Positions 42,143-54,269 of a stretch of DNA of 64,000 nucleotides are shown one piece after another. Under the pieces are notes generated by a model. That model was not told the DNA's origin. It did no database searches and saw only the letters and a list, made by a program, of their open reading frames with translations. How positions within the stretch are numbered: the stretch's first letter is position 1; each line of letters begins with the position of its first letter. Both the position numbers and the translations under genes were made by a program. Source of the stretch: Leucoraja ocellata (taxonomy: Eukaryota); contig JAWMAR010000263.1 in the NCBI GenBank assembly GCA_036785375.1, positions 2,728,001 to 2,792,000 of the forward strand. Direction: 5' to 3'.

Positions 42143-43192
42143 GTGCTTCTATTTATTATATTGTTGATCCTGGTTATGAGAACGGGAAGAAGTAGAAATA
42201 ACCAAAATGAAAGAAAAATTATGGGGGCTCATAGGCACTGGGTAGGAATTTAAAACAAAATGGCATTGCCCTAGCAGCTGCAATAGAAATGGACACAATG
42301 AAGGTGTCGAATGTGGTACTGAAAGGAAGCAAATGGGCAGAAATATTGTCCTGCTTGCTCTAAGTCAGTGAATTTGTAGCAGATTATGGTCCTTAGCCTC
42401 TCACATGAAATGGAAATAAAGGAGACAAGGAAGGGATTGGTTGGAGTGAATCACATAATGGTGAAGAGCAGAGTGAACATTGGCAGAAAAAAAATGATGT
42501 CCACTTCAATTTGGAGCAGGAATTGACATTAATATAGTCATCATGCCAGAATAAAAAGTACGAGAGGCTGACCAGAGTTGGACTGAAAGAAATAATATTT
42601 CACATATCCTGCAAAGGCACAAGCATAGTTGGGACCCAGGTGCGTTCCCATAGCAACACATTGGGCCAAGTCATGCTGGTTGTAGTCAGCACAATTACAT
42701 CCTAGATTTATATGCATGGTTGTCAGTCTGGGATTGCTCTCTCACTAGACTCTCCAAGGAATTCAATGGCAGATGTCAGAGTTACTGTGATTCAATACAT
42801 TACGGTGGAGAATCACCGCCCTAATCCCCAGGGCTGCATCTGAGAACCCTATGATTCAATTTGACAAATTATTAGGCAAATTGTTTTATTTCAGATTATC
42901 ATTTTACTTGTACCTAATTTTATTTTTTTAACATCAAACCAGGTTTAACGGAGGACAAAGTTTCGACCCCCACCTCTGCTTTCTGACAAAACGTGTTCGG
43001 TGCATTCCAGTGTGCGATCTCTCTACTAAGGTGCCCAAATCCTCAGCGCCATTTAAACCTCTCCATCAAAATAAAGCAAAGGCACATGAGATACAATTGG
43101 CCCATCGGAACCACCCTGCTTGATGTCATCTGTTGCCGGCCTTGATCGCTCCTGGTCTTTACTTGTTTCCAGTTCCTGTCCCATACAATTGG

Positions 43193-43320
43193 CTTTTTCT
43201 TCTCCTTGCCTAAAGTTGTAGGACAACTTGTTCTATTTGATCTTATTTGATTGTGCACGCCGGGTTGATTGCATTCATCGAAACTGGGCGGACCAAGTGA
43301 AGGTTGCAATCTTCCACCCC
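43193..43320 (-). mobile_element. Second copy of the HDV-ribozyme-headed mini-retroelement
   Basis: Homologous to 53276-53411, with an AAG-rich tail and an exact 8-bp TSD acaattgg (43185-92 / 43321-28). Confidence 0.8.
43267..43320 (-). ncRNA. Minimal HDV-like ribozyme motif (catalytic C mutated)
   Basis: GGGGUGG-AA-GAUUGCA-ACC-UUCACUU-GGU-CCGCCCA-G-UUUCGA-UGAA-UGCAAUC. P2 and P3 are perfect and P1 pairs 6 of 7, but CGAA has become UGAA (CpG-type decay). Confidence 0.65.
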
Positions 43321-44316
43321 ACAATTGGTCTGAAGAAGGGTCTCGACCCGAAATGTCACCTGTCCATTTTCTCCAGACATGCTGCCTGACCCAACCGACT
43401 TACTCCTGCAATTTGTGTCTATTTATCACATTAGATACAGGTTGGATGGCCCATTGGGCCGGCTCCACCATTGCATAGGATCATGGCTGATCTGGTTTTG
43501 GCCTCAGCTCCATTTTCTGCCTATCGCCATAAGCAAAGATCAGTATTAATATTCGATGGTTCACCTTCTGCATCTTTCTGGGAAAGAGAATCCTGACCAC
43601 TTACACCTCTCCTCATCTCCGTGCTAAATGATGGGTTAGTTGTTCCGAAACTGGATTCCCCAGGTTTAGATTTTACGTGAGAGGAAACATTCTTTCAGCA
43701 TCTACTTTGTGAATCTCCATTATGTTTCGGTAAGATTTACCTCTTGGTTTTCTAAATGAATGAAGGCTCAACCTGCACCAATCTATCCCCATGCGATGGT
43801 TGAGAGGCTGCCCCTGGGTTCAGCCAGTGTGGGGTTTGCACATTCTCCCTGTGATCACATAGATTTCTCCAATTACTCGGGTCTTCTCCCACGCACCAAA
43901 GGGCAAGTGGTTGTTAAGTTACCGCGAGACACAAAGTGCTTCTGTGACAGCGGGTCAGGCAGCAATCCCTGGAAAACATGGATAGGTGACGTTTTGGAAC
44001 GAGAATGGTTGGTAAGTTAACTGGCCACTGTAAATTGCTCCAAGTGTAACTAGGTGGCAGGACGACTTGTGCGTATGGGGGGAATTTGATGGGGATGCAA
44101 GAGGAAAAATAAGATGAGTGTAGGATTAGTGTTGATGGGTGTTCACAGTTGGCATGGGCATTCTGGACCGTGCTGTTTGATATTCTATGCTTCAGAGATA
44201 ACACTTTATCCCTGGCACCAACCAAGCAAACCTTCTCTGAACCGCTCCAATGCAAAAATATTCCTCCTTAAGAAGACCAGAGTTTTAGTCAGTGTGTGTA
44301 CACTAATACTTTTTTA

Positions 44317-53078: not shown

Positions 53079-53275
53079 ATGCAATCAGTATTGGATTGGA
53101 ACATAGATGTAGAACTTAAGGATCTGTCCATGACTATTCAAGTTGTGAAAAGCATATTCAAAATGATGGGTATGAAGGCATGTCAAGATTCAAAGGTGCT
53201 TAGCGCATTTGTGGGATGAATATAAACGTGAGTAACATCAGTTGGGAAAAGATGCAGAGAGGTTGAAGATGACCA

Positions 53276-53411
53276 CTTCTTTTTGCGTATGGCGTGCAAA
53301 GCCTAAAGTTGTACGACAACATGTTCTGTTTGATCTTTTGTTTGTGCGTGCCAGGTGGATTGGATTCGTTGAAACAAGGTGGATCACGTGAAGGTTGCAA
53401 TCTCCCACCCC
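53276..53411 (-). mobile_element. ~136-bp non-autonomous retroelement (Vingi/Ingi-like) with 5' HDV-like ribozyme
   Basis: Minus strand starts GGGGTGGGAGATTGCAACCTTCACGTG... and ends ...ACGCCATACGCAAAAAGAAG. Flanked by a 10-bp TSD with one mismatch, aagatgacca (53266-75) / aagatcacca (53412-21). Confidence 0.8.
53358..53411 (-). ncRNA. Minimal HDV-like ribozyme motif (slightly decayed copy)
   Basis: P1 GGGGUGG/CCACCUU, P2 GAUUGCA/UCCAAUC (1 mismatch), P3 ACC/GAU (1 mismatch), L3 UUCACGU, G for P1.1, tiny P4, J4/2 CGAA retaining the catalytic C. Confidence 0.7.
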
Positions 53412-54269
53412 AAGATCACCACAAGTTATGGTTAACCAGGATGAAATCCAATCGCTGAGGCCCCAGTGGAAAGGAGGTTGATTACAAATGCTGATGGAAA
53501 CAAGAAATAAACACTGAGTGAATGAAAGAAGATTAAAAAGAACATGGAACATAACTTCCATTATTCATGTTACTCTTCACAGCCAGATCAGCGTGCTTCG
53601 GGAACAGTGAATTAGAAATACGTACAGTCCATGAAAGAAGGCCCAGCAATTATTCATAGATTTATATGGCACGAAAAGATACCCTTCTGTCAAACTTGTC
53701 TATGCCAAACAGGATGCTACATCTAAGCTGGACCCATTTATCTGTGCTTGGTCCATATCCTCCTAAATCATTCCTATCTATGTAGCTGTCCAAATCTTTT
53801 AAATGTTACTGTAACTGCCTCAAGTCATATACCCACCACCCTCTGTGTGAACAAGCTGCCTCACATGTTCCTGTTAAATCCTTTTCCTCTCATCTTAAAC
53901 CTATGCCCCCCAGTTCATGATTCCCCCACCCAGGGAAAACAGGCGAGTATCTTACTGCAGGACACCCAGCATTTGACCTATTGTCACTACAGTATTCGTA
54001 TGGTTATGCACATAAATAGGCCCTTCAGCCCAATGCATCCATGCCAACCAAATTGTCTGTCTACACTAATTCTATTTGCCCATGTTTTATCCATATCGCG
54101 CTAAACCGTGTACCCTGTCCAAATGACTTTTAAATGCTGTTATAGTACCTGTCTCAACAATGTCCTCTTGCATCCCATTCCAAATACATGCCACACTCTG
54201 TATAAAAAGTTGCCTGTCAGGTTTTTATCGAATCCTTCCCATCTCACCAAAAACCTATGTAGAATAGAT

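Follow-up and report, generated by a model that had tools for sequence, protein, structure and literature searches.

Bipartite derivatives, in which the two ends of a LINE remain after its middle has been deleted, are said in the accessible text of one survey to be made only by RTE, Ingi, Vingi and R2, and the few clades concerned do so 'for unknown reasons' (Kojima 2018, PMC5786205). Vingi is described as a clade of compact LINEs with a single reading frame that contains an endonuclease (APE) and a reverse transcriptase (RT), without RNase H (PMC13708176). In the NARTc/L1Tc and RIME/ingi pairs of trypanosomes, which belong to a sister clade, the short partner has the first 77 and the last 30 nucleotides of the LINE, and an HDV-like ribozyme cleaves just before base 1 (PMC3383444). 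The R2 SIDEs of Drosophila follow a similar plan, in that a ribozyme is joined straight to the 3′ end of the LINE and the element is released from a co-transcript (PMC3414825). The mammalian CPEB3 ribozyme (RF00622), a single conserved intronic copy that has been studied for a role in memory, has a P1.1 of one pair plus U.U, and in helices as short as P3 a single change can have a strong effect (PMC9901934). HDV-like ribozymes without P4, the minimal delta-like and theta ribozymes, are active in vitro and are dead with a C-to-U change (PMC10879173).

The element described below is, with a probability that we put at about 0.72, a non-coding, internally deleted derivative of a LINE, in which a predicted P4-less ribozyme would cut at base 1 and a predicted stem between the two ends would be recognised by the LINE protein.

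The copies in the window

The window (the whole 64,000-nucleotide stretch analysed) contains two copies, both on the minus strand and both starting GGGGTGG. Copy 1 lies at 53276..53411 and is a 136-nt bipartite non-autonomous element of Vingi type; copy 2, at 43193..43320, belongs to another subfamily. A first-pass annotation had reported two such copies flanked by target-site duplications, and this was borne out: the duplications are of 11 bp (with one mismatch) for copy 1, where the 5′ copy (53412..53422) adjoins G1 and the first base of the 3′ copy (53266..53276) overlaps the tail, and of 8 bp for copy 2 (5′ copy 43321..43328, 3′ copy 43185..43192), all read on the minus strand.

The head of copy 1 (53358..53411, minus strand) is a predicted 54-nt ribozyme fold of HDV/CPEB3 type, as judged by descriptor parse, alignment and covariation. 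It consists of P1, P2, P3, L3, a P1.1 of one pair plus U.U, and J4/2 (53365..53368), with a stub of 5 nt where P4 would be. J4/2 aligns with its counterpart in the Rfam CPEB3 model via sister families, and position 53368 (element nt 44) is its presumed catalytic C. The descriptor parse gives exactly the P1, P2, P3 and P1.1 that had been proposed, and P4 is, as had been claimed, nearly absent, with the same 5-nt stub in the element and its parent. The 5′ arm of a predicted end-to-end stem follows at 53343..53353 (nt 59-69, derived from the parent 5′ UTR and carrying two changes in copy 1). Comparison with the parent then delimits a junction segment at 53314..53332 (about nt 80-98), which folds with the first bases of the 3′ part into a small hairpin, and the 3′ 38 nt in common with the parent LINE (53276..53313), all likewise on the minus strand. 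These 38 nt comprise the last codons and stop of the parent frame, the 3′ stem arm (53290-53300), a terminal AUACG motif and a (GAA)n tail. The longer 3′ motif GCCATACGCAAxAAGAAG that had been noted is present in the 53-kb copy, whereas the 43-kb copy has lost 16 nt there.

Both copies are damaged and are probably inactive, to judge from their sequences. Copy 1 (53411-53276) parses with 7/6/2 pairs in P1/P2/P3, with a C.A mismatch in P3 and C.C in P2. Copy 2 (43320-43193) has 6/7/3 pairs; the catalytic C, the G1.U wobble and the conserved L3, all present in the family, are absent from it, being replaced by U (T at 43277), G1.A and an altered L3, and its 16-nt deletion takes out the 3′ stem arm. 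For each copy the same contig contains a near-twin at a distance of 1.1 Mb, and the twin of copy 2 retains the C, so the C-to-U change in copy 2 is recent. The 43-53 kb region as a whole has an inverted near-duplicate at that distance (G000:C263:1658807 and 1668194), which is either a segmental duplication or an unmerged haplotype; many other loci likewise occur as such pairs. The window between 7094 and 62682 is also rich in other short repeats (families D2-D19), with CR1/L2-like LINE ends among them; one short-repeat family has about a dozen copies, and copy 2 is inserted in one of these. It should be noted that the loose descriptor was used only for parsing copies located by other means, since many of its matches arise by chance: within the window it gives 27 rows, of which three fall on the two copies described above. 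An Rfam scan of the window gave nothing HDV-like and called neither copy.

Family size and insertion

In the 3.44-Gb genome the family numbers at least 7,164 copies, a lower bound given by exact matches to a 35-place pattern running from L3 to P2; the reversed pattern gave 0. A DNA search with copy 1 yielded 1,397 candidates at first look; the 40 that were scored have identities of 89-100% and are nearly all at full length (copy 1 is 89-94% identical to the 39 others). The median divergence from the majority sequence is 5.1% among 68 insertions, a set that is not random, its members having been found by similarity and by pattern. The element is abundant in contigs of three organisms, and loose ends pile up at both of its termini.

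Sixty parsed copies represent 50 distinct insertions, of which 45 are flanked by duplications of at least 8 bp (mostly 10-13), as compared with 2 of 288 mismatched flank pairs. Base 1 is directly adjoined by 38 of the 45 duplications, so that the start at G1, inferred earlier from two copies, holds for the family. The simple-repeat tail and the target-site duplications are those that a bipartite non-autonomous LINE requires. One insertion has been amplified in a tandem array of ~2-kb units (G000:C1:19.26-19.49 Mb; L228, L229) with at least 15 element copies that have an intact head. Another copy (L023:2451-2576) has a 10-nt deletion of the 3′ strands of P3 and P1, within a clean 12-bp duplication.

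The parent LINE

When contigs were aligned on the element, a common loose end was found to join at about nt 99. The motif of this loose end has 590 matches in the genome (8 for the control), and 28 of 30 fetched loci run, by eye, into the last 38 nt of the element itself; most are 5′-truncated LINE ends. Walking upstream from them led to 41 matches to the RT region. Among 30 RT-region loci the element head is inverted in four, and among seven extended parent regions it is present in sense in three, inverted in one and lacking in three. Inversion of the 5′ part including the head is frequent in parent copies (L203, L211, L213, L215, L222, L182). The first-pass annotation had proposed a search for an autonomous LINE with both termini of the element, and such a LINE exists, as a decayed 2.8-kb endonuclease/RT element that has in common with the short element nt 1-79 and the last 38-44 nt. 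One locus, L225, spans 2,771 bases flanked by 11-bp duplications, and in this length it has the head (87% identical over nt 3-79), homology to endonuclease and RT, and the tail. Across six parent fragments, Pfam detects endonuclease and RT domains but not RNase H. The parent copies fetched contain no intact reading frame (the longest has 238 codons); because the frames are broken, a single frame is deduced from collinear homology with family A, a LINE family of the same genome discussed below.

The element accordingly consists of nt 1-79 of the LINE, a junction of about 14-19 nt, and the last 38-44 nt including the stop codon; by coordinate, the parts in common with the parent are nt 1-79 and 93/99-136. 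No match longer than 10 nt to nt 80-98 was found in four parent copies. Two further elements, L190 and L230, arose from this parent by deletions of their own. Since both ends come from the parent and the coding middle is deleted, the element is a bipartite non-autonomous LINE and not a Pol III SINE. The earlier label of 'SINE-like' has therefore to be dropped, the head being the parent LINE's own 5′ end, and it follows that P4 was lost in the LINE lineage. The proposal that a Vingi/Ingi-type LINE mobilises the element held, in that a related parent has been located.

The parent is likely to belong to the Vingi clade. Its 2.77-kb size and its APE and RT without RNase H fit the description of the clade (PMC13708176). 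Its protein is 25-45% identical to that of family A over long stretches, and the family A head matches the printed 5′ end of Vingi-2_Gav at 35 of 41 positions by eye; the parent 5′ end has only layout and core in common with named Vingi elements. A search with PF14529 gave at least 150 matches, and a motif scan of 30 of those loci and of 60 earlier ones found no unpaired head or tail. When the parent was sought with the C-terminus of the family A protein, 150 of 150 among the matches listed were family A.

The ribozyme fold

The head is an HDV-type nested double pseudoknot over 54 nt that is conserved in five families of the genome. Twenty natural heads from these families align without gaps outside P4, and 94.4% of the cells pair, as against 72.7% in shuffles (0 of 500 as high) and 36-46% when partners are slid by 1-3 columns. 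Two-sided changes occur at 14 of 22 pairs, a figure reached by 39 of 500 shuffles; these cells come from five related families, not from 20 independent events, and kinship inflates their counts. P1.1 is an invariant C-G pair in all 20 heads. Within the short family, two-sided changes are absent, and conservation of the head (0.949) does not stand out from that of the rest (0.925 and 0.944). The HDV-like fold had been expected to persist family-wide, and this agrees with the covariation and with the catalytic C, which a hand count finds in 95 of the first 100 listed pattern matches (80 of 84 when the 16 from one tandem array are left out). Any base can follow the C (G 41, U 39, A 11, C 4 in the same hand-counted 100); the parent and an older subfamily read CUAA, and younger subfamilies CGAA. 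The two-copy consensus that had been drawn up also corresponds to real sequences, since 10 of the 24 distinct insertions in the copy 1 search set, e.g. L003, have every pair and core base intact.

A subfamily with a dead C-to-U ribozyme, indicated by 23 of 26 copies in one sample, was considered and rejected as a product of query-driven selection. In one subfamily, C-to-U (TG) is found in 10 of 100 matches and the mirror CpG change (CA) in 18 of 100 (hand count); the former being no commoner, no dead subfamily has been amplified.

The P4 that is used to recognise HDV-like ribozymes is missing, and the head fits the minimal subgroup. A genome scan for a longer P4 on the short-element head gave 20 matches with a longer stub, all of them small indels, and no long-P4 version. 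Of the expected matches to Rfam models, those of the sister families lie above the RF00622 cut-off, while the element head lies far below every cut-off: an intact copy matches the HDV-F-prausnitzii model (RF02682) over exactly nt 1-54 at 15.9 bits (E 0.68, cut-off 44), and RF00622 does not match it. When L003 and 20 nt of its flank are folded by a plain, pseudoknot-blind method, P2 and the end stem are recovered, with P1 and P3 not as drawn. We think it quite probable, on the strength of the conserved fold, that the head self-cleaves 5′ of G1.

Predicted pairing between the two ends

The stem predicted for the short element is formed by nt 59-69 and nt 112-122; it is 11 bp long and contains a palindromic hexamer. 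No shuffle in 1,000 was as stable for each of four copies, and five in 1,000 were for the older L206. In families A and B, whose sequences are unrelated, an arm 5-6 nt past the ribozyme likewise pairs just before the terminal motif. In the same register, the 9-bp stem of family A is equalled by 0 of 979 body windows and 0 of 2,000 shuffles, and the stem of family B (11 bp with one bulge) by 0 of 965 and 0 of 2,000; non-cognate pairs of ends score 1-4. The register test failed on L224, the sole parent copy tested with both ends, which is decayed and scores 1; the parent reaches 9 only with a 5′ arm from L223 and a 3′ end from L184. On energy alone, L225 does not exceed its shuffles (119 of 1,000), and 13-40 of about 590 body windows equal the family A stem.

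The stem has grown from 8-9 pairs in the parent to 11 in the short element, the younger subfamilies having turned mismatches into pairs, where the order of subfamilies is inferred from likeness to the parent. A variant without the 3′ arm has 11 matches in the genome, on mixed backgrounds, and represents about ten insertions that integrated without the arm. It was for this reason rejected as a subfamily; the stemless variant inserts, arises probably by slippage during copying, and did not spread. The crocodilian SINE2-1_AMi, as printed, has a 5-bp hairpin in the same place (by eye) and a tail that resembles that of family B and is marked 'unknown' in its paper. L139 has a damaged ribozyme, and its two ends nevertheless pair. 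We consider it likely, from complementarity in a conserved register, that the end stem presents the tail to the LINE protein.

Sister families and the CPEB3 ribozyme

In this genome 59 places were scored against RF00622, and 56 of them exceed its cut-off; none of 14 control genomes has such a match. Of 30 fetched loci, 23 belong to family A (a 3.1-kb LINE of Vingi type), five to family D and two to family E, and family B came from the next ranks. These sister families score 50-65 bits (cut-off 35) and have no sequence in common with the element beyond motifs. Each of 12 full-length copies of family A examined begins at G1 and finishes with a similar motif followed by (GAA)n; its copies (L122, L124, L125, L127-L135; e.g. 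C82:979142 onward) are about 95% alike and it has at least 150 3′ ends. If any autonomous family was active recently, family A is the likeliest one. The genome also contains short derivatives of other Vingi-type families that begin with a ribozyme (L096, L101, L105, L107, L108, L139).

The heads of the old family E (L110:1501-1571, L117:1501-1579, L140:239-306), for which no body or tail was identified, differ very little from the consensus of the mammalian CPEB3 ribozyme, and the likeness extends to P4. L110 matches 55 of the 62 consensus positions of RF00622 that run from the final bases of P1, the P4 stem among them (hand count), which indicates likeness of sequence and not merely a common fold. 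The simplest reading is that the mammalian ribozyme may have descended from such an element. CPEB3-related sequences in non-mammals, and a general link to retrotransposon 5′ ends, are already in print (PMC8256844); in the accessible text of an ancestral reconstruction of CPEB3 (PMC8233481), the words 'origin', 'retrotransposon' and 'transposable' are all absent. With near-copies of the CPEB3 ribozyme at the 5′ ends of LINEs, a transposon origin can be tested directly.

Proposed mechanism and its alternatives

A source copy would be transcribed by Pol II, either as part of a read-through transcript or from a promoter that lies in the head. The ribozyme, whose fold is indicated by covariation, would then cut 5′ of G1 to leave a defined, uncapped 5′ end, and pairing of nt 59-69 with nt 112-122 would expose the single-stranded terminal motif and (GAA)n. 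The LINE protein, acting in trans as LINE biology suggests, would insert the element by target-primed reverse transcription with 10-13-bp duplications, and inserted copies would decay, as both window copies have done. We regard as evenly balanced the wider proposal that Vingi-type LINEs define their RNA template by a 5′ CPEB3-type ribozyme and an inter-UTR stem, and that the mammalian CPEB3 ribozyme is a domesticated Vingi 5′ end.

It might instead be supposed that the head is a fossil or weak ribozyme, and that the 5′ end is set by an internal Pol II promoter at base 1 or that the fold protects the RNA or binds the LINE protein. In L1Tc the same 77 nt (Pr77) are both promoter and ribozyme (PMC3383444); the head has no P4, and its P1.1 of one pair plus U.U is a feature tied to slow cleavage by CPEB3 (PMC13635239); moreover, a 136-nt RNA would be copied to its end however that end arose. 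We nevertheless find this account unlikely, given that the catalytic C, the G1.U wobble, L3 and P1.1 have persisted in families in which the helix sequences have been replaced, and that the base after the C varies as it does in active HDV-type ribozymes. An untemplated G at the junction is a signature of capped LINE RNA, and a lone extra G is seen at just three of 60 5′ junctions, which weakly favours an uncapped template and counts against the internal promoter. More doubtful than convincing is the suggestion that the ribozyme is real and the end stem incidental, the 5′ ribozyme and 3′ terminal motif each being needed separately. R2 SIDEs require only a ribozyme and the 3′ end (PMC3414825), and the failure of L224, the weak result for L225 and the existence of stemless copies are in keeping with this; against it stand the unrelated sequences of families A and B that pair in one register beyond all controls, the lengthening of the parent's stem in the short element and the hairpin of SINE2-1_AMi.

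The size, copy number, short duplications and simple-repeat tail would also suit a conventional Pol III SINE with an RNA-gene head. This is very improbable, and is in effect already refuted because the parent LINE has the same nt 1-79 as its head. Three copies contain no A box, exact or with one mismatch, and no exact B box, in the usual forms of these boxes, in agreement with the earlier remark that a Pol III promoter is missing; Rfam scans of the window and of an intact copy gave no match to tRNA, 5S or 7SL.

The wider proposal, of a LINE template defined by a 5′ ribozyme and an inter-UTR stem, would if true explain the two-ended parasites of the Vingi clade. The 54-nt head would then be among the smallest natural HDV-type ribozymes in an animal, with thousands of copies able to cut host transcripts.

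Comparison with known systems

The overall design of ribozyme plus tail is already known from R2 SIDEs and NARTc/RIME. In the searchable literature (Repbase, Dfam and patents lying outside it) we found no statement that Vingi heads are ribozymes, that the CPEB3 ribozyme derives from a Vingi head or that Vingi-type ends pair, no paper on long-range UTR pairing, and no P4-less ribozyme on a Vingi-type element. Priority is accordingly uncertain. The 'Ingi' ribozymes of Ruminski 2011 may include elements now named Vingi. A P4-less ribozyme with thousands of natural variants is a ready mutational library, and a stem between the UTRs is a possible and testable reason why Vingi yields two-ended derivatives. 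Vingi-1_Acar already serves for gene insertion in a two-RNA system, with both UTRs on its templates (PMC13708176), so that the ribozyme and the stem bear on template design.

The Vingi-1_EE derivatives, Bov-A and RTE-N resemble the element in being LINE 5′ and 3′ ends joined by internal deletion (Kojima 2018, PMC5786205). The trypanosome pairs are alike in plan, but their ribozymes have P4 and have been shown to be active (PMC3383444), whereas the 54-nt head has no P4 and is a predicted ribozyme; the element also differs from them in its (GAA)n tail and in its thousands of dispersed copies in a 3.4-Gb animal genome. R2 SIDEs are rare and site-specific in rDNA (PMC3414825), whereas the element is abundant and dispersed and would use an APE-type LINE. 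The mammalian CPEB3 ribozyme has the same helix lengths, identical L3, J1/4 and J4/2, and the same P1.1 of one pair plus U.U; the element head has diverged helices and no P4, falls under the model threshold, and is not a single intronic copy. The minimal delta-like and theta ribozymes have the P4-less fold in common with the element, but they come from metagenomes and gut phages (PMC10879173), whereas the element is an animal retrotransposon.
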